This document shows positions 6,484-64,000 of a DNA stretch of 64,000 nucleotides, piece by piece. The first letter of the stretch is position 1, and each line of letters opens with the position of its first letter. A program made the translations under genes and the position numbers. This DNA comes from a virus. The DNA lies in IMG/VR virus record IMGVR_UViG_3300011116_000925, positions 24,486 to 88,485 of that record, one strand, 5' to 3'. Below the pieces are notes generated by a model, which did no database searches, was not told where the DNA came from, and saw nothing but the letters and a program-made list of their open reading frames with translations.

Positions 6484-6553
6484 TACATAAAATCCCTTTC
6501 TAGGCTTCTTAGATCTATTTATAAGTTCTTTTGATGAAAGAATCAATTTCTTT

Positions 6554-23672: not shown

Positions 23673-24773
23673 TTATTCACTTGCTGGTGAAGAAGGTGGA
23701 CTAGACGGTGAATTTCCACCACCAGATCCAGAACCAGATCCACCACTGAAAAATGCGCTTCCAATACCTACTGCTGCAATTCCTGCTCCTATTATAGGCA
23801 ACGAAGATGCGGCGCCACCTAATGGATTGGTAATTTGTTGATTAAATTGTGGACCTGTAAACAATCCACCTGTATTAGCATTGAAAATATTATTATTGTT
23901 GGGTACTTTATTAGTCAATGGGCTTGGCGTTTTATCATAAATTAAATCAGCAAATCCAGGTGGAGTTCCCTTTTGAATATAACCAGTAGCATAGAGAACT
24001 CCACTGTAGCCAAATGTAATACTAATATCTCTAGGATCAGCACTGGCTGCTTCCATTTCACCACTTTGCATAGACATAATCCAAGGATTCATAATACTAT
24101 GCATGGTAAACATACCCTTACTAAAATTGTAAAAATCAATTGCTAAAAAGAAATCTTTAAGAGTTCGTGTTTGAAATCCCCAATTATTATAATTTCGCAC
24201 ATCTTTAATTACATCTGGTGCGTATCCAGTTTTTCTCGGCACATTCGGATCACCATAAAAATACTTATAGTAGTTATTCCATAAATTAATTACGGTATTA
24301 TTACTATCATCATGAAATACTATTGTTACAGGATCATATTTAATTCCAGTGAACACTGGAACCTTTTTATTGTATTGATTTTTTTCATCAGAAATCAAAG
24401 TAAATTTCGGAAGATCAACATGCTTTGCTAATGTACCAAGCTGTCTAACTCGTATACCTTCAGAAGGGTCCCCAAATAAATTATTCAATAATCTATTTGG
24501 TGTATTCATAACATCAGTGATGGTGTTCAATACGCCCTGTATTTGACCTAATATATTATTTCCAAATCCATTGTTAGAACTATTTTGTTTTAATTCATTT
24601 ATATTCTTCATTACACTTGGATTAGGTCGAACCAAGACTGAATATAAATGCTTATGCTTTGGGACTAGTTGATAATAATTGTCAACGAATACTCTAGCAG
24701 CATGTTGATAATCCCGGAGACCGACATTCGGATCTATTGTGCCGGCCCCCCAAAAAGTATCTCCAAAAGCCAT
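23673..24773 (-). CDS. tail tube-like / baseplate tube initiator (gp48/gp54-like)
   Basis: VDLPKF...YDPVTIVFHDD tube-fold pattern; follows the tube gene. Confidence 0.6.
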   Translation of the reverse strand: MAFGDTFWGAGTIDPNVGLRDYQHAARVFVDNYYQLVPKHKHLYSVLVRPNPSVMKNINELKQNSSNNGFGNNILGQIQGVLNTITDVMNTPNRLLNNLFGDPSEGIRVRQLGTLAKHVDLPKFTLISDEKNQYNKKVPVFTGIKYDPVTIVFHDDSNNTVINLWNNYYKYFYGDPNVPRKTGYAPDVIKDVRNYNNWGFQTRTLKDFFLAIDFYNFSKGMFTMHSIMNPWIMSMQSGEMEAASADPRDISITFGYSGVLYATGYIQKGTPPGFADLIYDKTPSPLTNKVPNNNNIFNANTGGLFTGPQFNQQITNPLGGAASSLPIIGAGIAAVGIGSAFFSGGSGSGSGGGNSPSSPPSSPASE

Positions 24774-45104: not shown

Positions 45105-45112
45105 TATTTATA
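45105..45112 (-). promoter_or_regulatory. T4-type late promoter for the fibre operon
   Basis: TATAAATA. Confidence 0.6.
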
Positions 45113-49412: not shown

Positions 49413-50279
49413 TTATAATATCAGACTGAATAATAATGCTCTAGTTTTTGAAACAAGTTCATCATTTGTTGTTAAATTATTTACATATAACCCAGTATGT
49501 CCAGATCCTGGATCTGATGCATAAAATTGATTAGATCCACCAACTGGTGTTGGTATTGATCCTTGATTCACCATTCTTATGGCATTTGATAAAATTATTT
49601 GACCTATACCATTACCCGAAATAGTTAAATTACCATCACTAGTTAATGATGATATATTATCAACACGAAATCCTTCACTTTGTAATTTAGCAAAAAGAAC
49701 ATCATCAAGATTAAAATCTATATAACTTCCTGATACACCAGTATCAGTAATAACTACTGAACTATCATTTTGATAAATTGCATTCGTAACAATATTATTA
49801 TCAACATATGTTTTTACAGCATGTTGAGTTGCAAGAGATTGAGAACTATCTCCTGACAAGGTCGTATCATTATCAATAGAAGTTATGGTTTCACCATCAG
49901 ATAATGATATAGAAGCAGATCTAAAATCTCCCAATGTATTATCACTATCACTGAATACTTTCCATTGATCAGTTGATTCATCCCAAAGTATAGCAGCTGG
50001 AGTTAATGATCCCCTATCAATCACTAATCCTGATATTCCTAATGTAACTCCGGCTCCAGATTCATCTTTATTTAGAGTTATGATATTATCAGTTATAGAT
50101 AAATCTGTAGATGTCACTGTGGTTGATGATCCCTGTACTACAAGATTCCCTACAACAGTTACCGTTCCATTTGATCTAGTATTCAATACTATATTACCAT
50201 CAACAGATGATAATATATCTATATTACCATTACTATCTATTTTATAATCACCGGAAAATCTTATTGTGCGTGTGGACAT
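49413..50279 (-). CDS. virion structural (fibre-like) protein
   Basis: GNLVVQG...DNIITLN...IDRG, LATQHAVKTYVD. Confidence 0.6.
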   Translation of the reverse strand: MSTRTIRFSGDYKIDSNGNIDILSSVDGNIVLNTRSNGTVTVVGNLVVQGSSTTVTSTDLSITDNIITLNKDESGAGVTLGISGLVIDRGSLTPAAILWDESTDQWKVFSDSDNTLGDFRSASISLSDGETITSIDNDTTLSGDSSQSLATQHAVKTYVDNNIVTNAIYQNDSSVVITDTGVSGSYIDFNLDDVLFAKLQSEGFRVDNISSLTSDGNLTISGNGIGQIILSNAIRMVNQGSIPTPVGGSNQFYASDPGSGHTGLYVNNLTTNDELVSKTRALLFSLIL

Positions 50280-50300
50280 GTTTATACCTTATTTATTGAA

Positions 50301-50327
50301 GAAGGGAGGTTATAAAAACCTCCCTTC
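50301..50327 (-). terminator. intrinsic terminator-like hairpin
   Basis: GAAGGGAGGTT...AACCTCCCTTC. Confidence 0.65.
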
Positions 50328-50351
50328 AATTTAACTTATTCTAATAAATTT

Positions 50352-51476
50352 TTATCCATTCAATATTGTTACTGATGATCCTTCAACTGCTGAACCAAAT
50401 GTCCATGGAACACTTATTCCAGTTGATCCTGTAGTGAATTGTGTTCCAGTTCTACTACCTTTGACAATAACTGCTTTATGTGCAGTTAATTTAGTAACAT
50501 AATATGTTCCACCATCACTATCAGTTGCAGTTAATGTCATTTGTCCAGCAGATGGTGCTGCGGCTACTAATTTACATACTCCTGTACCATCAGATGTTAT
50601 AACTCTATATGTTTTAGAATTTTCCTGTTTGATGATATCCGCAGGATGAGCACTTCCACCAGTAATATAAGCACTCGCTTTAATAGCTGGTAAATTGCTA
50701 TTTGTTAGCGTTGCAGTTGCGGCTGCTCCTGTACTTCCTGAAAATGTTAATGCTGCATCTGATGCTTGATAATATCCTGCACCACTTGTTACTACGCTTA
50801 CACTTAACAATTTCATTGTTGCAGTTAATGTTGCACCAGTTCCACCAGATGGTGATACCGTTGTTGCTCCACCAGCACTTGGAAATGTCGTATAATCTCC
50901 GGCGACGGTAGGTGTTGATGTTAATGTATTAACTCCCCAAAGAATATTAAATGTAGGTGTACCTACTCCAGATCCTGTGGTTGAATTTGCTGTTACTGGA
51001 TTTGCGGGTTTTGCGGCAATTCTACTTCCAGCTGTGGTCACACTTACCGTGGTAATTTGATCTGATCCATTAACTGCGGTAACGGTCAATACTGTATTGG
51101 TTCCACCAGCATTTGTAAATGTAAAGGTATCATTAATTGCCCAACCAGAAGTTCCACCAGCTTGAACTGTTGCACTTACTGCCTTAATAGCAGATACTTC
51201 AAATTGTGCTGCGGTTACTGCGGTTCCAGTTGTTAATGTTAGGACATCATGATAATTATATCCTGATCCAGCAGCAACCACGGCAGCACTGGATGATTTA
51301 TAATGAGCTAATACGGTAGCTATTACTCCACCAGGAAGCGGAGAGCCTACTGTAACCGTTGGTATCGTGGTCCAGCCAGATCCAGCTGTAATTGATCCAT
51401 AGCTAGCAACACCTTCACCACCAACTTGAACCGTATTTGTATTTCCAAAATATTTCTTTTGTAGAGGACGTCCCAT
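50352..51476 (-). CDS. Thr/Gly/Ala-rich virion structural protein
   Basis: MGRPL start, GSGY repeats, AAGGAG SD, upstream TAAATA. Confidence 0.65.
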   Translation of the reverse strand: MGRPLQKKYFGNTNTVQVGGEGVASYGSITAGSGWTTIPTVTVGSPLPGGVIATVLAHYKSSSAAVVAAGSGYNYHDVLTLTTGTAVTAAQFEVSAIKAVSATVQAGGTSGWAINDTFTFTNAGGTNTVLTVTAVNGSDQITTVSVTTAGSRIAAKPANPVTANSTTGSGVGTPTFNILWGVNTLTSTPTVAGDYTTFPSAGGATTVSPSGGTGATLTATMKLLSVSVVTSGAGYYQASDAALTFSGSTGAAATATLTNSNLPAIKASAYITGGSAHPADIIKQENSKTYRVITSDGTGVCKLVAAAPSAGQMTLTATDSDGGTYYVTKLTAHKAVIVKGSRTGTQFTTGSTGISVPWTFGSAVEGSSVTILNG

Positions 51477-51580
51477 TTATTTTTCTCCTTGTTATAGGCG
51501 TTCTATGCCCTACGCTGTGGGTCAGCATAAAAACGATTATGTATAATCGGATATTATATTTATTGATTTTCAACCATATA

Positions 51581-51611
51581 TGATTATAGGGACCTAAGGT
51601 CCCTATAATCA
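51581..51611 (-). terminator. hairpin terminator after the Nampt gene
   Basis: TGATTATAGGGACC-TAA-GGTCCCTATAATCA. Confidence 0.75.
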
Positions 51612-51612
51612 C

Positions 51613-53007
51613 TTATTCAAACTTGCCAGCTGCTCGTTTTCTAATAGATTCAAAATTATCATCAATTAATAATTCACCATTTTTAAACACAACTCGTAAT
51701 TCGTTTTGCCACGAATTCCCACTCTCTGGTTTGCATGTTGCTATTCCTTTTTCATAAACAACAGCAAAACGACCCTTCTTACTAATTTTACCATGGTCTG
51801 TAACGGGATCTTTATATACGTCATACCACTTACCATCTCTATTAATGGCAGAACATTTCATTGCCCATTTTAATGTATCTCTATTCAATCCTTGAAGTAA
51901 CATACCTCCCATACCAAATGCAACATTTTCCGAACTCCATCCATTTCTAGTAATAAATTCGAGGATTTGTTCGATACTTGATAAATTAATTCCGTCACCT
52001 TGAATAACTCGAATATATGGTGGAAGTACCTTATAACCTAATTTATTCACAGAATATCCAAATGACACTCCTAACCTATTCAAGCATTCTAATACTACTT
52101 CATGTGGTGTCCCACTATCTGGTCTAACGACCACGGTTGCACCACATTCAATAACCATTGATCTAAGTTGATCGCCCCAGATATTACTTATAGCATTATA
52201 AATGTCATAACTATCACTAACTACTGCTAATAAACCACCAGGCTTAGAAAATTTTTGAACCATATTTGCATATGCATCTACTTCACCTTCCCTACCCCAA
52301 CTGGTTATTGTGCTATGTTCGGCAGCTGGAATGCTGAAACCAACGGCAGTTTCAGTATTATAAAATTCAATTGCTGCAACCAATGCTCCCATGGTATCAG
52401 TACCTAAGAAATTAATTAAATGAGCTAGTCCACCTAATTCACCACTTTCCTTGCTGCTGACTCCTCGATATCCAAAATCATGTAATTTAAATCCAATTTG
52501 GGATTCTGGATCTTCACATGTTTTAATCAAATAATCCATTATGATTTGTTTGGCATGATAACTAATTGTTGCTACCGTTGATGGATACCAAACTGCTCGA
52601 AGCAATGATGTTTCCAAAAAACTTGTTAACCAAAAACATTTTGGATCAGTATTTTCAATTGTCAAGACAGGAATATGTGTAGGCACTACCATACCTTCTG
52701 GTAATGCTCTAATAATTACTGGTAACTTTCCATTATGTTTATTAACGATATAATCCCATCCAATTCTATTAAATGGTAGACCGTGCGCAATAGTAATCTT
52801 TTCTGCAAAATCCACATCTTCAGATGTGATTGGAATTGTTAAATATTTCTTAATAAATGCCTGTAAGCCAAACATTACTAATTTATTAAACTGTCCACCT
52901 CTACTTTCAATATAACTATATACAGTTTCTGTGTTGGGTGGATATTGTAAGAAATGGCTGTGTTTATAAGAATCGGTATTTAGAATTATTGAGTCTCTAA
53001 CTTTCAT
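51613..53007 (-). CDS. nadV: nicotinamide phosphoribosyltransferase (Nampt)
   Basis: TDSYKHSH, LHDFGYRG, SIPAAEHS, VSDSYD, RPDSG, IQGDG, KSKKG-like motif. Confidence 0.95.
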   Translation of the reverse strand: MKVRDSIILNTDSYKHSHFLQYPPNTETVYSYIESRGGQFNKLVMFGLQAFIKKYLTIPITSEDVDFAEKITIAHGLPFNRIGWDYIVNKHNGKLPVIIRALPEGMVVPTHIPVLTIENTDPKCFWLTSFLETSLLRAVWYPSTVATISYHAKQIIMDYLIKTCEDPESQIGFKLHDFGYRGVSSKESGELGGLAHLINFLGTDTMGALVAAIEFYNTETAVGFSIPAAEHSTITSWGREGEVDAYANMVQKFSKPGGLLAVVSDSYDIYNAISNIWGDQLRSMVIECGATVVVRPDSGTPHEVVLECLNRLGVSFGYSVNKLGYKVLPPYIRVIQGDGINLSSIEQILEFITRNGWSSENVAFGMGGMLLQGLNRDTLKWAMKCSAINRDGKWYDVYKDPVTDHGKISKKGRFAVVYEKGIATCKPESGNSWQNELRVVFKNGELLIDDNFESIRKRAAGKFE

Positions 53008-53056
53008 AGTAAATCTCCTTTACTGTTGCTATGATTCAAAACGTCTATCGTTCTGA
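53008..53056 (-). promoter_or_regulatory. two-hairpin RNA leader motif, copy 1
   Basis: TCAGAAC-GATAGAC-GTTTTGA then AGTAAA-GGAGA-TTTACT. Confidence 0.7.
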
Positions 53057-53057
53057 T

Positions 53058-54074
53058 TTAGATTCTGGCTAAAAGATTGTGAATAATGTCATAATGGTCT
53101 TCAAACATCATTGCACGTTTTATTGATGCAATAGGAAACCAGACAGCCTTCTTTGCATCATCACTGCCTTTGACTTTAGGCAATTCTAAATCATCCTTAA
53201 GTTTAAATAAGAATGCATGAGTAATAGTTCGTCCTCGTGAACTACGATGTGGGTCATCAAATACATCACGTTCAACCATACTTCCACGTAATACAGGTTC
53301 TGGAACTTTGATTTTTGTTTCTTCACGAAGTTCTCGAATTACTGCATCAATAATCTTTTCTTGAGGATTTAAAAATCCTCCAGGCATAGCCCATAATCCT
53401 TTTCCTGGATATCCTCTTCTTTCAACTAAAAGAACATTACCACCTTGTACCACAACAGCATCAACTGTTGAAAAAATAGGAGTATATGGTGCATTTTTCC
53501 AGGCCAATTTATATTTGGCAACAAATTCAAATTCTTGCGCAATCTGTTGATAATGTTTAGAATTACGATGTAATTCCAAATGAGAAATCATTTGTTCCGT
53601 CAAATATTGATGATAATTAGTTTTCAATAATCCCCAATATCCTTCTCGAATATCAGTCGCATTAATAGGTGGAATATTAGGGAAACCAATATTATCCCAT
53701 TGTGGAAATAACTTTAAATAGAAACTAGAGCCATCCTTCTGATGGCCCAAAAGAGCCACCCTATCATTCATCATTATATGTTTAGATACTAATTCTTGAA
53801 CTTGTGAAATCCAAGCGGAATCATTATAAGTTCTATCTTCAAGTGGTTCAAATATAATTCGATCATCATATTCTGATGAATCATAATGCATCTTGATCAT
53901 TTTAGCACGATCAAGCCAATGCCATGGATTTCGAATATTAGGAGGCTGATTAGCACTTCCAACCAATATTAACACTTTTTTTGCTTTTGTGAGGCCATTA
54001 TCAATGATGCTTTTATGTCCTAGGTGAAATGGCTGAAATCTACCTATAAAGACCGCTAAATCGTACATTGGCAT
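53058..54074 (-). CDS. bifunctional NMN adenylyltransferase / ADP-ribose Nudix hydrolase (NadM-Nudix)
   Basis: GRFQPFHLGH, NATDIR, PGGF...RELREET, GSDDA. Confidence 0.93.
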   Translation of the reverse strand: MPMYDLAVFIGRFQPFHLGHKSIIDNGLTKAKKVLILVGSANQPPNIRNPWHWLDRAKMIKMHYDSSEYDDRIIFEPLEDRTYNDSAWISQVQELVSKHIMMNDRVALLGHQKDGSSFYLKLFPQWDNIGFPNIPPINATDIREGYWGLLKTNYHQYLTEQMISHLELHRNSKHYQQIAQEFEFVAKYKLAWKNAPYTPIFSTVDAVVVQGGNVLLVERRGYPGKGLWAMPGGFLNPQEKIIDAVIRELREETKIKVPEPVLRGSMVERDVFDDPHRSSRGRTITHAFLFKLKDDLELPKVKGSDDAKKAVWFPIASIKRAMMFEDHYDIIHNLLARI

Positions 54075-54114
54075 AACTCCTATACCGTTAATTCAATGAA
54101 GTCTATCTTCATTG
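54070..54114 (-). promoter_or_regulatory. two-hairpin RNA leader motif, copy 2
   Basis: CAATGAA-GATAGAC-TTCATTG then GGTATA-GGAGT-TATGCC; TATAAATA just upstream. Confidence 0.7.
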
Positions 54115-54159
54115 TCATATATTTATATGCTTCTAACTTTAAGAAAACAATATTAAAAT

Positions 54160-55599
54160 CTAAATTTCAAAAATTAAATTACCGCAGTCCCAATATCTCC
54201 TATATCCTGAATTAAACATATTTTTGGATTCACTCAATTTAGAATCATATGATTTTAACCATTTTGATAATTGTTTCTTTTGCGCTTTATATCGTGAAAT
54301 AACCTTGGTACCATCTGTCCAAAAATATCCAGGTTTGCTATTACCAATCAATTTAAATCCAGATGCCAAATATCCATTGCCAATACTTTTGGATCTATCA
54401 CAATAAGTAATAAATAATCCAGAATGATATTTTTTAGTATGTGATATGAGTTTGCTTAATCCACCCACGACAGTATATCCGATCTTAGTTGATATACGAA
54501 GAATTTCCAAATTATTATTTTTCTTAAATCTATTTTTACCAAATCCTATCATCATTACAAGTTCTTGATCTAAAAATAACCCATATGCGATTGTTGATCT
54601 TATATAACCCTGTATATGATTATCTATTAAAAATTTCCTAGTTTCTTTATTTGTTAAAGATCGAACCTGACATTTTCGTGCATAAATTTTATTGGTTAAT
54701 CCAAGTTTTGATTTAATAAGATCCTTAATTATTTCTGCCTTATTGATCCATTCAAAATCTGTAATATGTAATAATTGAATTCCATATTTCTCACATTCTA
54801 TGGTTTTATCCAAATGTTTGTTCTTATAATCTGATTCAAGTTCAGATGACGGAGCGGAATGCCAATATAATCCATTAATTTCTATCGCTAACTTAGATGA
54901 TGGAATATAGATATCAATTTCTTTATTTTTTAATATTTTCCAATTAGATTCTTCTATTGAAACTCCTAATGATTTAATATAAGTTCCAATGTCTTTTTCA
55001 ATAATACTATAATTAGATGTTTGTCTTATTTCAAATCCATATAATTTTAAATAATCAATAACAGTTCCATAATAAGTGTTTAATTCTTTTGCAATGTCAA
55101 CAGTTGTTCTTTTCTTAACTTCATATTCTTCAGTTAACCAAATTTTATCATTCAATTTATTAAAAACATTTAATGGAATCTTAGGTTTTGTCCATGAATG
55201 ATGAATTTCTGGACGTTGACTATTGTATCCCACACCATATTTCAAAACCATTGAATTTAATCTTTTTTCATTGATCTTAGAATTCTGATCATCTGAATAA
55301 TTTAATTTGGTTTTAGAAACATTGAACTTAATATTATTTTTTGTACATTGACACACATTTGCTGGACCACACATTGTCCATCCAGAATTAAATCTAGATA
55401 TCTTTTTAATATTACCAAATTCACAAAGATTTGATTCTTGATATATTGCACTGTAAATTTTATCCTTAAATTCTGTTGTCTCAATTAAAGAATTTTTATC
55501 AATCCATTTTACCAAAACATCATTCTTTTTAATAATTCTAATATAATGTTTAGGATTCTTTTTTATAATATCTAAAATATCAAGTCGTTGTTGTTGCAT
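54160..55599 (-). mobile_element. free-standing Hef-like homing endonuclease gene
   Basis: EIDIYIP..LAIEINGLYWHS, IYARKC, WDCG; very AT-rich; directly downstream of the capsid gene. Confidence 0.7.
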
Positions 55600-55648
55600 A
55601 TTATTATTTATAGAACATTCTAATCATGATGTCAATTTAGTCAAAACG

Positions 55649-55669
55649 ATAGGGGCTCAAGGCCCCTAT
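55649..55669 (-). terminator. terminator after the capsid gene
   Basis: ATAGGGGC...GCCCCTAT hairpin followed by TTTT. Confidence 0.75.
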
Positions 55670-55698
55670 GTTTTATCAAAATTACAACTAATTTTAGT

Positions 55699-56874
55699 TT
55701 AGCTGAATTTTAAATTCGTGGTGTTGATTCCGATTGTTGAAACGTAATCAGCGGCATTACCTAGTGATGATGCTGTATTTGTTAATTCTTTATACCCATA
55801 ACGAGTTAAGAAACCAACAGTTGGCTCAAAAGTAGTTGGATCAAGCACAACTCCACTGCTCATCAGTGGAATATATGGACAATAGAACGCTGCTGCATCT
55901 GTTTCACTTGAACCCTTATATCCTAACAATACAACTGTGTTACTTGGTGCATATGCATCAACGTAAACCTTCATACTGCTATTCAATGTTCCAACAAACT
56001 TAGTGTTAGTTGGGGCTTCGAATGTTCCTTCAGTTGTTCTTGCGAATGCAGAAGTTGTTGCACTCTGAAGAATTGTTAAGGTGTTGCTACTTACAACGGC
56101 CCAATTTGCTGCGCCACGACGTGTGCGTTGTGCAACCAAGTTAGCCTGTTGATTGATAAGAACAGCTAATGCAGCATGTTCGTCACCGACGAAAGTTGCT
56201 GTACCACTTACTGCTGCTTGATCATAAGTTGCTGCGGTGTTACCTGGCAATGCACGTAGGCTTGTCAAGATTTCCTGATCTATTTCAGCAGTAATTTCTT
56301 GAGCAAGTGCTGCCATAACTTCAGCTTCAACGTCAATACCATGAATAGCATTTGCATCTTGTGCTGCTTCAAAGGTCCAACGTGCGCTTAGTTTACGAGA
56401 CTTAGCCTCAACAACTTCACGCAATACTTGAATGCTTAGACGGTTACCAGCAACGCCTTCAAGAGCTGCTACGCTAGATGCTTTAGGAGTTGCCAATACG
56501 GCATTACCTGAATAACTAGCTGCAATTTTGAATGGGCTCAATGCTTCTTCACCTGCCATTACACCGGCACCAGTGCTCGTGTCACTGTATCGTACACGTA
56601 GAGTGTGAATCTGACCAACTGGTCCTGTCATTGGCTGCACACCAACGATTTCGTTGGCGATAACAGTTGGCATAACACGACGAATAATTGGAAGAATTAC
56701 TCTATTTAGAGTTGCAATATTACCAACGCTGGTTGCACCAGCTGTTGCTTGTTCCATAAGATGTCGACGGGTATTATCTAGGACCGTGCTCATTGCGTCC
56801 CTTCTAATTCCTGTTAACCCTTCGGTTAGAGCTGCTTTAGTATCTCTCCAGCCCTCATTAAGAATGTCTACCAT
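55699..56874 (-). CDS. major capsid protein (gp23-like)
   Basis: GVQPMTGPVGQI, SRKLSARWT, EITAEID, FYCPYIPL, TRYG. Confidence 0.95.
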   Translation of the reverse strand: MVDILNEGWRDTKAALTEGLTGIRRDAMSTVLDNTRRHLMEQATAGATSVGNIATLNRVILPIIRRVMPTVIANEIVGVQPMTGPVGQIHTLRVRYSDTSTGAGVMAGEEALSPFKIAASYSGNAVLATPKASSVAALEGVAGNRLSIQVLREVVEAKSRKLSARWTFEAAQDANAIHGIDVEAEVMAALAQEITAEIDQEILTSLRALPGNTAATYDQAAVSGTATFVGDEHAALAVLINQQANLVAQRTRRGAANWAVVSSNTLTILQSATTSAFARTTEGTFEAPTNTKFVGTLNSSMKVYVDAYAPSNTVVLLGYKGSSETDAAAFYCPYIPLMSSGVVLDPTTFEPTVGFLTRYGYKELTNTASSLGNAADYVSTIGINTTNLKFS

Positions 56875-56896
56875 TTTCTCTCCTATTTACTTTAAA

Positions 56897-58000
56897 TTAA
56901 TTTTGAATACCGGCTAGTTTTCGTAGCTCGTCCAGTCTCACTACACCACTTTCATTAGTTGATTTTACAATTCTATTTCCAGTTGCTTCGCGAGTTTCTC
57001 TCTTGCCTTCGTTAAGTACAGACTTTTTATTTTGAACTGCTTCATTCAAAACTGCTGGTAAATACTTGTCAAATGCATTTTTTAACTGTGCAGTTTGCAC
57101 ACCCTCAAGTAAATCTAACATTACTGTTTTCTTTGACTTTTCTAGGTTTGCCGTAAGTTCAGCAATAGTCTTAGAACGATCTCTTGCATCTCGAACCTTT
57201 GCAATTTCTGCATTCTTTGATTCTATTAGCTTCGTCTTAGATTCAAGTGAAGATCGAGCTTCACTTAAAGCTTTATCCTTTTGCTTCATTACAGTGATTA
57301 AGCGAGCAATTTCTCCCTTTTCATTGTGTAAGCTACTTTGATATTCATGAACGAATGCCTCGAACAAACGTCTGCCGAAGTTATTCTGTCGAGCAGCTTC
57401 GATATCTTCCTTGAACTGACCCATATGAGCCTGTAGGTTCTTACGAACTGTCTCTGCTACTAGCGCAGAACTCTTCTTAATAAAGGCTGATTTAGTTTCT
57501 TCAAACTTTTGATTAGCCTCTTTGATCAAACGAACTTTAGTTTCAACAACTGCTCGTTTATCCTGGGTAAATTCTGAAATCTCTTCACCCAAAGTTTTAA
57601 TAACAAATTTCTCCAACTTTCCAAAGTTTTGACCTACCTTGGCACGATCACCATGTAGTTCTTTAATTTCTTTCTTAAGTTGTTCAAGAATAAAGGAATT
57701 AACCTTCTTAACATTGTTTCTCATTGATCGTTTTAGGGCAACTCGATCCTCTGCTAATTTCTTCTTGTCAATGGCAAACTCTGAAATTTCCTTTGTGAGC
57801 CATTCTTTTGTCATGGTGTCAAGTGCTTCTACGATATTTGTCTTATCATGTTCGTATTTTCTAGCATACTCTTCACGTAGATCATTTGTTATGTTAACTT
57901 TTGCTGATGAGAGTTGTGAATCCCATGCCTCTTGGATAGATTTACGAGTATCTTCATTAATGATACCATTATCCACCAAATTCTTAATTGCGTCTAACAT
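56897..58000 (-). CDS. prohead scaffold (gp22-like)
   Basis: Coiled-coil protein between protease and capsid genes. Confidence 0.75.
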   Translation of the reverse strand: MLDAIKNLVDNGIINEDTRKSIQEAWDSQLSSAKVNITNDLREEYARKYEHDKTNIVEALDTMTKEWLTKEISEFAIDKKKLAEDRVALKRSMRNNVKKVNSFILEQLKKEIKELHGDRAKVGQNFGKLEKFVIKTLGEEISEFTQDKRAVVETKVRLIKEANQKFEETKSAFIKKSSALVAETVRKNLQAHMGQFKEDIEAARQNNFGRRLFEAFVHEYQSSLHNEKGEIARLITVMKQKDKALSEARSSLESKTKLIESKNAEIAKVRDARDRSKTIAELTANLEKSKKTVMLDLLEGVQTAQLKNAFDKYLPAVLNEAVQNKKSVLNEGKRETREATGNRIVKSTNESGVVRLDELRKLAGIQN

Positions 58001-61723: not shown

Positions 61724-64000
61724 TTAAGTTCTCTGAGTTTCAAATATATCTAACATATCCTTCAGAGTTCTATTTCCTTCATCGCTGTAGTTTAAATTCA
61801 TTTTAAACAATGCAACTAGTTCTGCAATTGATTCCTTCAAATCTTTAGTTAAATCTCTAGTCTCAATTGTTACAGCAAATTGTTCCTTTTCTGGACGACT
61901 AAAATCTGCCAATGTTTGATTTCTTGTTGATTTTTCAACTCTATCCGTAATAGGATCCAATCTACCAGATTCCTGTTTTGCCAATTCTGCTATTATTGCT
62001 GATTTTAATGATCCTAATTCTGATCTTATGGTATCTGGTAAAGATGTCAATCTATCAATACTATCTCGATCAAATGCTGAAGTCCCAACATTTTTCGTAT
62101 TGGTAATAGAATCCATCCATTTATCAATAGTTCTTTCAAAATTCAATCCAGGATTAGAATGTTGTTGTGCCTTCATAGAAGACATTTCATCTATTGAATT
62201 CATCAAACTTGCAATCATATCATTTATATTCACTATCATTCGTTCATTTAATACGAATTCATTAGCATGTAATTGGAACAATCCTCCTCGACCAGAAGAA
62301 CCACCTTCTTTTCTTTGTGGTACATATTTGCCTGGATCAGCCATAAAATCTCTCATTTCTGTACGAAATTCAATAGACTTCTTAATTTCTTGATTAAGTA
62401 CATCCCTGAGATCGTCTGGTTTCATACCAGTTATTCCCTTAGGATCTGGTGTTTGATTTCTATAAATATCTTCTATTGCTTTTTGGTCATCAATTCTTTT
62501 TTGTATTTCTGCTTTCTTCTTATCAACATCATTAAACCATTTACTCTTATCTTGATCATTCATATTTGGTGGAGCTTGAATTCCTTCGCGTTCTAATCTA
62601 CGACGTTGTCCAACACCAGTTTCAATAGGACCAATCTTATCAGGTATTAAAGATTCCTTAATCTTTTTCAATATGTCAGATGTGATCTTATCAATCATTA
62701 TCATAAATTGTTCTTTCATAGGACCAGCATTCTGTTCTATTAATGACGTTATCTTAGGAATTATTTTGTCAATTAAATTATCCATCAAAGTTGATATTCC
62801 TGCTGATAATGGATTGATTATTTTATTCTCAACAGTTTTCATGATTCCATCTTGATCAACACCTTGGATGAATGATGTAATCCAATCCTTAATGCTCTTA
62901 AATGTATTCATGATAAACTTATCAATATTTTCTGCATTATCTGACAAATATTTTAATCCACTAATAATTCCATCAGATAGATAAGTCATTGCATGATCAA
63001 ATATTTTGAACAATCCAGTAAATACTTCAGAATTTAAAAATGCATCTTCGACTTTTTTAAATGCATTTCGCAATTTCTCACTAATTTTTGATAATGATGC
63101 AGTTTCTCCTGCTTCCTTTTGCATCTGTTCAGTAAATCTTTTTCTGACTGCTGCTTCCAATTCCAATCCAGATATAGTTAATCCCTTTTTCTTTTCTTCT
63201 TCTATAATCGTTCCTTCTAATGTTCTTAATCTTGCTGCTGATGCTAAAGTAATTTTTGCAAAATCAGCAAATGCTGGATTTGTGCTTGCCAATACTTCAA
63301 GTTGTTTCTGTCTTGATGAATCCATCTTTGCTGCATATGCCAAATCTAATGAAACTTTAGATGCATCTACTTTCTGATTCATTTTGATCTGATCTGATAG
63401 TTTCATTAATTCCATTGCAGTTTGTGGAGCCGCAATTCTTAATTGATTTAAATCTTCCCCTGTTCCTAATGTAAATGCTTGATCAAATGCTCTTTGAAAC
63501 CCAGGACCTAATGATGCAGCGGCTGCTGCTGCGGTAGTAAAACTTTCTCTTGCATTATCATTACCTTGGTCTTCAAGATTTAACAATTTCAATTGAACCT
63601 TAGCTTGTTCAACTTGTTCTCGTACTGATTGACTCAAATCTTTCCTATTTTTACCAGTTAATCTTGATAATCCATCTAATTCTTTAGCATATTTTACACT
63701 TGATGTAATCAATGATGAATCAGTTTTAGCCAATTGTGTTCCGATGGTAGAATTGGTTTTATTAATAGCCATATAATCCAATAATACATCATTAATTTCA
63801 CCAAAAGTATATCCCATTGCAGAAAGTTGAAAATTATTGAAAGACCTAACACCTTTACTTAATAATCCAAAGTTTTTAGATACAGAACCTATGTTTGGAC
63901 CAATTGTTGAAAACAATTCACTATTTTGCTTAAAAATGGCAGTAAATTCACTCATTGTCATTGCACTCGCTGCGTCTGATCTATTAATGTCAAGGAATGA
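61724..64000 (-). CDS. tape-measure-like helical tail protein, 5' end outside the window
   Basis: Frame open to 64000; YAKELDGLSRLTGKNR and LHANEFVL motifs. Confidence 0.55.
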   Translation of the reverse strand, partial: SFLDINRSDAASAMTMSEFTAIFKQNSELFSTIGPNIGSVSKNFGLLSKGVRSFNNFQLSAMGYTFGEINDVLLDYMAINKTNSTIGTQLAKTDSSLITSSVKYAKELDGLSRLTGKNRKDLSQSVREQVEQAKVQLKLLNLEDQGNDNARESFTTAAAAAASLGPGFQRAFDQAFTLGTGEDLNQLRIAAPQTAMELMKLSDQIKMNQKVDASKVSLDLAYAAKMDSSRQKQLEVLASTNPAFADFAKITLASAARLRTLEGTIIEEEKKKGLTISGLELEAAVRKRFTEQMQKEAGETASLSKISEKLRNAFKKVEDAFLNSEVFTGLFKIFDHAMTYLSDGIISGLKYLSDNAENIDKFIMNTFKSIKDWITSFIQGVDQDGIMKTVENKIINPLSAGISTLMDNLIDKIIPKITSLIEQNAGPMKEQFMIMIDKITSDILKKIKESLIPDKIGPIETGVGQRRRLEREGIQAPPNMNDQDKSKWFNDVDKKKAEIQKRIDDQKAIEDIYRNQTPDPKGITGMKPDDLRDVLNQEIKKSIEFRTEMRDFMADPGKYVPQRKEGGSSGRGGLFQLHANEFVLNERMIVNINDMIASLMNSIDEMSSMKAQQHSNPGLNFERTIDKWMDSITNTKNVGTSAFDRDSIDRLTSLPDTIRSELGSLKSAIIAELAKQESGRLDPITDRVEKSTRNQTLADFSRPEKEQFAVTIETRDLTKDLKESIAELVALFKMNLNYSDEGNRTLKDMLDIFETQRT

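Follow-up and report, generated by a model that had tools for sequence, protein, structure and literature searches.

A two-hairpin leader RNA common to the NAD+ salvage genes natV and nadV in phages and Proteobacteria

The window analyzed here is a 64,000-nucleotide stretch (positions 24,486 to 88,485) of IMG/VR virus record IMGVR_UViG_3300011116_000925, an 88.5-kb contig rated 24% complete. The window encodes a gp23-type capsid protein, and the phage is an uncultured, T4-like one. Two neighboring minus-strand genes, natV and nadV, encode enzymes for the salvage of nicotinamide adenine dinucleotide (NAD+), and both were found to be preceded by the same leader RNA: a first hairpin (P1) with a conserved loop, a short linker, and a second hairpin (P2) that holds the Shine-Dalgarno sequence at the start codon. 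A first-pass annotation made from the letters alone had proposed that one two-hairpin motif stands before both genes, and the sequence, the predicted fold and a covariance model all bear this out. Based on covariation across a family of related leaders and on the specificity of the element, the two leaders are copies of one conserved RNA element specific to NAD genes. It is a widespread uncatalogued family within a known kind, the leader RNA operators. The features of the two leaders and their genes are given below; the minus strand carries every gene around them in the open reading frame (ORF) list.

51613-53007, minus strand: nadV, nicotinamide phosphoribosyltransferase (NAMPT); NAPRTase 1.9e-57, NAMPT_N 3e-28, phrog_448 7.2e-161
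53005-53007, minus strand: nadV start codon AUG, abutted by P2 (sequence)
53008-53024, minus strand: nadV leader P2, AGUAAA/UUUACU, 6 pairs, GGAGA in the loop, abutting the AUG
53015-53027, minus strand: nadV leader 13-mer AACAGUAAAGGAG (sequence)
53025-53035, minus strand: nadV leader linker AUCAUAGCAAC (sequence, fold)
53036-53056, minus strand: nadV leader P1, arms UCAGAAC/GUUUUGA, 7 pairs including one G-U, plus a G-C closing pair
53043-53049, minus strand: nadV leader P1 loop GAUAGAC (sequence)
53058-53060, minus strand: natV stop codon TAA (sequence)
53058-54074, minus strand: natV, bifunctional nicotinamide mononucleotide (NMN) adenylyltransferase/Nudix protein (NadM-Nudix); NUDIX 1.2e-21, CTP_transf_like 2.3e-09, phrog_395 4.6e-86
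54066-54068, minus strand: likely natV start codon, the second in-frame AUG (family geometry)
54070-54086, minus strand: natV leader P2, GGUAUA/UAUGCC, 6 pairs, GGAGU in the loop; holds the Shine-Dalgarno sequence and the first in-frame AUG
54077-54089, minus strand: natV leader 13-mer AACGGUAUAGGAG (sequence)
54087-54093, minus strand: natV leader linker AAUUAAC, single-stranded, no G (sequence, fold)
54094-54114, minus strand: natV leader P1, CAAUGAA/UUCAUUG, 7 pairs plus a G-C closing pair around AUAGA (minimum free energy structure, model matches)
54101-54107, minus strand: natV leader P1 loop GAUAGAC (sequence)
54120-54127, minus strand: natV leader late-promoter-like box TATAAATA (T4-type word)

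Both window leaders are of the plain form, with a single P1 per gene, perfect stems and a late-promoter-like box before the first gene. The 3' side of P1 ends UUGAAU in both, and a short linker leads from there into the shared word AAC-R-GUA-W-AGGAG, as had been annotated; the second 6-bp hairpin, with GGAG in its loop and located at or over the start codon, was also correctly described for both leaders. The heptamer GAUAGAC had been taken to be the P1 loop. It is indeed conserved on different stems, but its G and C form a base pair; the loop proper is therefore the pentaloop AUAGA (A-N-A-G-A in the family), and P1 consists of 8 perfect pairs in both leaders once the G-C closing pair is counted. 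The P1 of the nadV leader starts 1 base past the natV stop codon. The natV reading frame has two in-frame AUGs on the minus strand, one within the 3' arm of P2 (54072-54074) and one a single base past P2 (54066-54068). Because P2 ends 0-3 nt before the AUG in the rest of the family, natV probably starts at 54066-54068 rather than at the ORF-list start of 54074. From the coordinates, the distance between the end of the loop and the AUG is 35 nt for nadV and 32 nt for natV with the second AUG.

The minimum free energy (MFE) structure calculated for both leaders with ViennaRNA consists of the two hairpins (-11.0 and -13.6 kcal/mol; z -2.98 and -3.06 versus shuffled sequences), and the nadV start region (-28 to +3) has an MFE of -3.2 kcal/mol compared with a window mean of -0.96 (sd 1.28). 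No intrinsic terminator was recognized at either leader, since the gene-strand P1s are not followed by a U tract; the natV P1 (54094-54114) scored as terminator-like on the plus strand only, where no gene runs. The DNA word GATAGAC occurs twice in the 64 kb, both times in an NAD leader and on the gene strand, versus 5.5 copies expected. Because the word itself is not enriched, its significance lies in its context. Exact matches in the window to the 13-mer before the Shine-Dalgarno sequence are confined to the same two leaders.

To define the family, relatives of NadV and NatV were taken from IMG/VR (86 loci, 50-62% protein identity), and a plain word scan of these loci found the same loop in a hairpin before NAD genes, on quite different stems. 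One alignment was made of 71 distinct phage leaders and another of 83 phage and bacterial leaders, the latter omitting leaders with doubtful loops or starts (L022, L030, L048, L084, L105), the long Psychrobacter leaders, and near-duplicates more than 88% similar. In the 71 phage leaders, the cells of the two hairpins were 79.0% paired compared with 29-46% for slid partners, and the covariation score of 0.540 (0.183 in shuffles) was reached by 0 of 500 shuffles. P2 in this set was 84% paired and showed two-sided changes in 5 of its 6 pairs. For P1 across the 83 leaders, pairing was 82.0% (25-42% when slid), two-sided changes were seen in 8 of 8 pairs, and the score was 0.827 versus 0.180. The covariation that the first-pass annotation had read within one genome involved two sequences only; it is the set of 83 leaders that bears it out.

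Covariance models gave a concordant picture. Model R1 gave 98 matches in 91 loci, without exception on the NAD-gene strand. Model R3 was built from 98 matches, all of them from other genomes, with the window sequence excluded. Run on the window with filters off, it scored the two NAD sites at 32.4 bits (E 1.1e-4) and 24.1 bits (E 7.7e-3), with E-values here and below being rough because of a short calibration; the next best of the 22 matches listed reached 15.0 bits. The outcome on the full 88.5-kb record was the same. DNA nearly identical to the window was not found in the phage collection by megablast.

The leader and loop-class counts that follow come from regular expressions applied to loci that are often closely related, with starts assigned by script, and so do not represent independent events. 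A loop-bearing leader was found before 57 of 86 phage nadV genes, and 34 of 69 phage natV leaders have the canonical loop. These numbers bear on the possibility that the window pair reflects chance, or a functionless local duplication of one leader. There are just two window copies, and their 13-mers before the Shine-Dalgarno sequence are nearly identical, which is what such an origin would produce. It is refuted, however, by the recurrence of the same layout with unrelated stems in these phages and in bacteria, and by the recovery of both copies with a model built without the window genome, and we assign it practically no weight.

Across the family, P1 has 6-8 pairs of free sequence, at times with an internal mismatch, and is closed by G-C or less often C-G (68 and 10 of the 83 leaders; A-U in 2). 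No stem column carries more than 0.34 bit. In the loop, by comparison, A1, G4 and A5 are invariant (83/83) and A3 is present in 81 of 83. The linker is without conserved sequence and poor in G (8% versus 24% overall). P2, a hairpin of 5-7 bp, forms between the spacer and the 5' half of the Shine-Dalgarno sequence; the distance from loop end to AUG is 28-42 nt, with a median of 32. Folded singly, 80 of 83 leaders have the closed pentaloop in their MFE structure and 81 of 83 a local hairpin at the ribosome site. The window copies share all of this: a pentaloop P1, the P2 geometry, the position before natV or nadV, and the score from an independent model. The pairing cells of P2 include 77 G-U versus 10 A-C combinations, indicating that the folding strand is the sense RNA.

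A DNA-level alternative is that P1 is the palindromic site of a transcription factor such as NrtR, an ADP-ribose-responsive repressor of nadV and nadM operons with Nudix and winged helix-turn-helix (wHTH) domains, whose reported sites are palindromes of 21 bp in which the arms are conserved and the core reads GT-N7-AC (PMC2330246). Such sites are the inverse of what is observed: the P1 arms are free and it is the asymmetric center that is invariant. P1 does have the length reported there, being a 21-bp inverted repeat, but only 8 of 83 leaders have GT-N7-AC near P1, and neither of the window copies does. Also in favor of an NrtR operator, nrtR lies divergently beside natV in 8 leader-bearing gammaproteobacterial loci (L100, L106, L107, L108, L197, L198, L199, L201), and the G-U and A-C counts of P1 favor neither strand. 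Many other leader-bearing bacterial loci, however, have no nrtR within 3 kb, and in one of the eight (L107) a separate perfect 15-bp palindrome, seen by eye between the -35 and -10 boxes of natV, is likely an NrtR site. The leader moreover has a constant orientation and a distance fixed to the AUG rather than to a promoter, and the window nadV copy has no promoter. The NrtR wHTH domain (PF21906) was found in 0 of 5 phage records (3 complete, that of the window 24% complete), which says nothing about NrtR of the host. We consider a DNA operator very unlikely; in bacteria that have nrtR, NrtR and the RNA leader appear to form distinct control layers.

In phages, the 57 loop-bearing nadV leaders comprise 47 G-closed and 10 C-closed loops; 4 further leaders are odd variants and 25 nadV genes have none, most of these directly following natV in an operon. 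The phage natV leaders include 26 G-closed and 8 C-closed loops, the remainder being 13 with a GGYRGUC hairpin, 6 odd ones, 14 without a hairpin and 2 with too little upstream sequence. The third loop type, GGYRGUC (L016, L024-L026, L028, L032, L033, L043, L046, L050, L055, L067, L071), accompanies a NatV that is only 34% identical, while NadV there is still 71% identical. NatV of this clade has 323-325 aa, the hairpin has 6-9 pairs and is followed by the usual Shine-Dalgarno hairpin, and nadV follows in the same operon without its own P1. Among 11 cultured phages, the leader is present before both natV and nadV in four, namely Phaeobacter phage MD18, Roseobacter phage DSS3P8, Xanthomonas phage LucasX and Synechococcus phage BUCT-ZZ01, whose host genera are Phaeobacter, Ruegeria, Xanthomonas and Synechococcus. 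The leader is absent from the other 7 (RsoM2USA, RSP15, Vibrio R11Z, Mesorhizobium Cp1R7A-A1, DLP_6, Bajun and phiRSL1). A few phage leaders stand before small proteins of no known function (phrog_12218, phrog_33851 and one family without a match).

Specificity was assessed by searching whole genomes, with up to 150 (or 37) candidates scored per genome. Three large phage genomes of 300-519 kb gave 5 matches below E 0.01, every one of them a natV or nadV leader. Two other phage genomes gave no model match; the nadV leader is C-closed in one and lacks P1 in the other. Fifteen bacterial genomes searched with model R2 yielded 20 matches, 16 of which were natV or nadV leaders, with the others being before an SPFH/Band-7 gene (1), before Psychrobacter symporter operons (2), and a false match to P2 alone (1). 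Covariance-model and word scans located the motif in NAD-gene leaders of related phages, and the genome searches found that it is not spread over unrelated genes; the two sequence-level outcomes that the first-pass annotation had named as refuting its proposal were thus not observed.

The bacterial sample consisted of 31 full-length nadM-Nudix loci from GTDB genomes, in which the leader was found before natV in 12 of 30 and before nadV in 14 of 24. Leader-bearing bacteria span the Epsilon-, Gamma-, Beta- and Alphaproteobacteria and include Neptuniibacter, Caulobacter zeae, Marinobacter xestospongiae, Ralstonia flaminis and Psychrobacter. Their loops are GAUAGAC, GAAAGAC or GACAGAC, and their P2 is GC-rich and plainly covarying. 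In Psychrobacter sp. HD31 (L185, L189), two paralogous operons carry the full leader with loops GAUAGAC and GAAAGAC. In each, a membrane protein with two helices (95-108 aa; weak DUF997 match) is encoded ahead of a sodium:solute symporter, making these operons candidate uptake systems for an NAD precursor. An uncultured member of the Pseudomonadales (L106/L187) has natV and nadV in an island with nrtR, Tpt1/KptA (an RNA 2'-phosphotransferase), NADAR, DUF4291 and the SPFH/Band-7 gene, which carries its own copy of the leader. The Psychrobacter nadV leaders of L101-L104 and L122 have an extra GC-rich hairpin between P1 and P2, and the natV genes of these genomes lack the leader and encode a protein extended at length at its N-terminus.

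A survey of one bacterial order (151 genomes) gave R2 matches at E <=0.05 in 4 genomes, two of which are without NatV. One of these two is a repeated hairpin resembling repetitive extragenic palindromic (REP) elements beside a transposase-like fragment; the other is weak, with no gene after it. As R2 recovered only 2 of the 6 leader-bearing NatV genomes in this order, absence of the leader elsewhere is weakly supported. Repeated GAUAGAC/GACAGAC hairpins on GGGG/CCCC stems (L193, L195) mimic P1 and cause false model matches; a short ORF beside them looks like the N-terminus of what we take to be a REP-associated (RAYT-type) transposase.

The leader is also placed in a regular manner relative to promoters. 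The box TATAAATA is depleted in the window (5 copies versus 14.2 expected), and all but one of the copies are on the gene strand:

6516-6523, 45105-45112, 54120-54127 and 55605-55612, minus strand: copies of TATAAATA
62461-62468, plus strand: copy of TATAAATA

The three copies checked (6516, 54120 and 55605) stand just before gene starts. Nine family leaders have this box, and in 7 of them its end lies exactly 12 nt upstream of the 7-nt loop; first-gene leaders mostly have their -10-like boxes 16-18 nt before the loop. The T4 late-promoter rule sets the transcription start relative to the box, and by this rule transcription of natV-nadV would begin approximately at the first base of P1. Of 38 nadV leaders, 32 showed no promoter-like box within 60 nt, and no promoter-like site of its own was found for the window nadV leader.

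This placement is one of the attractions of an explanation without any ligand, in which P1 caps the 5' end of the mRNA, insulates the linker as a ribosome standby site for a structured start region, or stabilizes the message. The conserved loop would in that case either fold stably or be contacted by some universal factor, for example S1 or the ribosome. An element of this type would work in any host, and the G-poor linker between two hairpins would suit it as well. The window nadV copy, though, is operon-internal, 1 base past the natV stop codon, and is therefore not a 5' cap, and the nadV leaders lacking a promoter-like box present the same difficulty. It would also leave unexplained why, in genomes of 0.2-7.8 Mb, the element is confined to NAD genes and why three loop bases are invariant, and we regard this possibility as improbable.

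Since P2 holds the Shine-Dalgarno sequence next to the AUG, the leader is very probably a cis-acting control element of translation on the mRNA. In the model that we favor, P2 would damp translation initiation, with a weak effect in the window phage and a stronger one in GC-rich bacteria. P1, which lies where the 30S footprint ends on its upstream side, would be the docking hairpin for a trans-acting macromolecule that locks or relieves the P2 block, so that both enzymes, plus a few further genes in some genomes, would be set together post-transcriptionally. A macromolecular reader of P1 is suggested by the few invariant bases on a free stem, which is the usual signature of one. We put the chance that a protein reads P1 at about even, and the same evenly balanced judgment applies to the leader as a whole being a translational operator read by a protein. 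Because the leader moves with its cassette among phages of unrelated hosts and across four bacterial classes, the reader should be either encoded by the cassette or universal.

A universal reader could be a small molecule, in which case the leader would be a riboswitch that binds a metabolite of the pathway (ADP-ribose, NAD+, NMN, nicotinamide or phosphoribosyl pyrophosphate (PRPP)) and alters access to the ribosome site. This would readily explain function across unrelated hosts, and the limitation to one pathway, including putative uptake (symporter) operons, is often seen in riboswitch regulons. Two classes of NAD+ riboswitch exist, but the Rfam models for NAD+-I and NAD+-II do not match the leader. 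Conservation is limited to the pentaloop and its closing pair, the linker is unconserved, and the stem is often without an internal loop, leaving no evident pocket. By eye, the printed leaders contain no helix switching between P1 and P2 and no conserved complement of the loop; a pseudoknot or kissing interaction was discarded because the leaders inspected in this way lack such a complement. In addition, genomes with a flipped closing pair have it in both of their leaders, which would be unexpected for a common ligand. On balance, a riboswitch appears unlikely.

Returning to a protein reader, NatV, which the first-pass annotation had also raised as a possible binder, is the tentative candidate, with a probability that we judge to be clearly below even. 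Loop classes are concordant in leader pairs within one genome (25 G/G-closed, 7 C/C-closed, 0 mixed), and natV was found in 5 of 5 contigs where it is not adjacent to the leader-bearing nadV. Together with the pairing of GGYRGUC loops with a divergent NatV, these sequence patterns lean toward a protein of the cassette and, weakly, toward NatV. If so, NatV would exert feedback repression and be the counterpart, at the RNA level, of NadR and NrtR. NadV and NatV make up the NARP2 pathway, and its preprint reports excess NAD+, a cost in PRPP, and toxicity for the NARP2 operon in E. coli (10.1101/2024.02.11.579819). This cost and toxicity would provide a reason for feedback.

Several observations weigh against this model. 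Every functional step of it is one that we infer. Inheritance of the entire cassette from a common ancestor would also account for all three hints in favor of NatV, and the loop-class concordance may reflect few evolutionary events, as many of the loci are close relatives. Because natV and nadV co-occur everywhere examined, co-occurrence cannot separate them as readers. A domain search found no recognizable RNA-binding domain in NatV. P2 is weak in the AT-rich window phage (about -3 kcal/mol), and in a lax test a Shine-Dalgarno hairpin was found for 10 of 33 other window genes, with 3 passing genes, nadV included, reaching at least 6 pairs. For P1, the numbers of G-U (41) and A-C (34) cells are equal and do not indicate the pairing strand. 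A set of several operons looks more like the work of a pathway regulator or riboswitch than of classical autoregulation. As for distribution, phage RsoM2USA has natV and nadV yet no canonical P1, 6 of 12 NatV-positive genomes in the one order surveyed have no leader within 1.5 kb, and Psychrobacter natV is without a leader while nadV and two transporter operons have one.

Two stricter ideas were discarded in the course of this work. That P2 is unique to NAD genes is ruled out in the window by the 10 of 33 genes just mentioned; P2 is nonetheless conserved and covarying in the family. That the leader marks every natV is ruled out by RsoM2USA, the one-order survey, and the phage and bacterial counts.

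A more elaborate version would make the leader and NatV an ADP-ribose-sensing ribonucleoprotein switch, an RNA-level parallel of NrtR built from the same fold. The Nudix (ADP-ribose pyrophosphatase) domain of NatV would hold the adenosine-rich A-N-A-G-A loop in or near its nucleotide pocket and thereby silence the natV/nadV mRNA, and ADP-ribose released by NADase defenses of the host (Thoeris, DSR, SIR2-type) would displace the RNA. We view this scheme in its entirety as a long shot. Were it true, the costly NARP2 pathway would be translated only on need, in phages and bacteria alike.

The surroundings of the NAD genes include other features. Between the gp23-like capsid gene (55699-56874) and natV lies a 479-aa homing/HNH-endonuclease-like gene at 54160-55599 on the minus strand (phrog_3339, 5e-98), with its own late-promoter-like box TATAAATA at 55605-55612 on the same strand. 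A freshwater-2 RNA (RF02980) was found at 51474-51548 on the minus strand with 52.0 bits (gathering score 49.9), flanked by the nadV stop codon on one side and, on the other, by the start of a 374-aa ORF (50352-51476) without Pfam or PHROG matches. As 0 of 18 other NAD loci have one, this RNA seems to have no link with the NAD leader. One phage contig has a group I intron near its NAD genes (L014 455-649; 55.9 bits), and another has at least 12 tRNA genes clustered around them (L038).

The first-pass annotation had been unable to place the motif in a known RNA family, and the Rfam searches of the leaders came back empty. Rfam 15 gave no match at E up to 10 to the leaders in window positions 50000-57000 or in 8 variant (C-closed) loci, and no leader match at gathering score in 18 further loci. 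The NAD+-I (nadA) and NAD+-II (pnuC) riboswitch models and that of the PyrR site (RF00515) did not match a leader in these searches. A snoZ30 match of 18.9 bits at 53066-53116 (E 6.2), inside the coding end of natV, was dismissed as noise. Among the papers listed on phage nadV/nadM/NAMPT riboswitches, RNA motifs or GAUAGAC, none was found to describe the leader, and the available part of the NARP2 preprint makes no mention of a UTR, hairpin, riboswitch or leader (10.1101/2024.02.11.579819). New here are the definition of the pentaloop, the loop classes and their concordance within genomes, the NrtR test, the symporter operons, the promoter spacing, and the four cultured phages bearing the leader.

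NARP2, a name given in the same preprint (10.1101/2024.02.11.579819), is how phages rebuild NAD+ against NAD-depleting immunity. If the proposed role is true, the leader would be the first known regulator of this counter-defense, a dedicated and portable control RNA on both of its genes, and in bacteria it would join NrtR, NadR and NiaR as a new regulator of nicotinamide salvage. It is common to jumbo and T4-like phages, cyanophages, roseophages and free-living Proteobacteria. Being small (about 55 nt), with three or four essential bases and present in cultured systems, it makes the reader directly testable.

Among known systems, the leader shares its form with autogenous translational operators read by proteins, such as those of E. 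coli thrS and threonyl-tRNA synthetase (ThrRS), phage T4 gene 43 and gene 32, and the MS2 coat protein hairpin. As in these, a small hairpin with an invariant loop on a free stem lies at or upstream of the ribosome-binding site. The leader differs from them in being common to several operons, and its loop resembles none of theirs. With the NAD+ riboswitches of class I (nadA) and class II (pnuC), both of which are in Rfam, it shares being a leader RNA of NAD genes, and class II also involves the Shine-Dalgarno region. The leader is much simpler, however, with its conservation confined to one pentaloop. The PyrR binding loop (RF00515) is a terminal loop AGAGA between C and G, bound by a protein of phosphoribosyltransferase fold that acts by transcription attenuation. 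The C-closed leader loop CAGAGAG resembles this loop, and RF00515 gives no match on the C-closed leaders. The final comparison is with NadR and NrtR, the latter controlling nadM-nadV and prs-nadV operons (PMC2330246). Both act on DNA through a helix-turn-helix at palindromes with conserved arms, whereas the arms of the leader are free and NatV has no helix-turn-helix. What they have in common with the leader is the logic of the pathway: the sensing role is taken on by an NMN adenylyltransferase in NadR and by a Nudix fold in NrtR.

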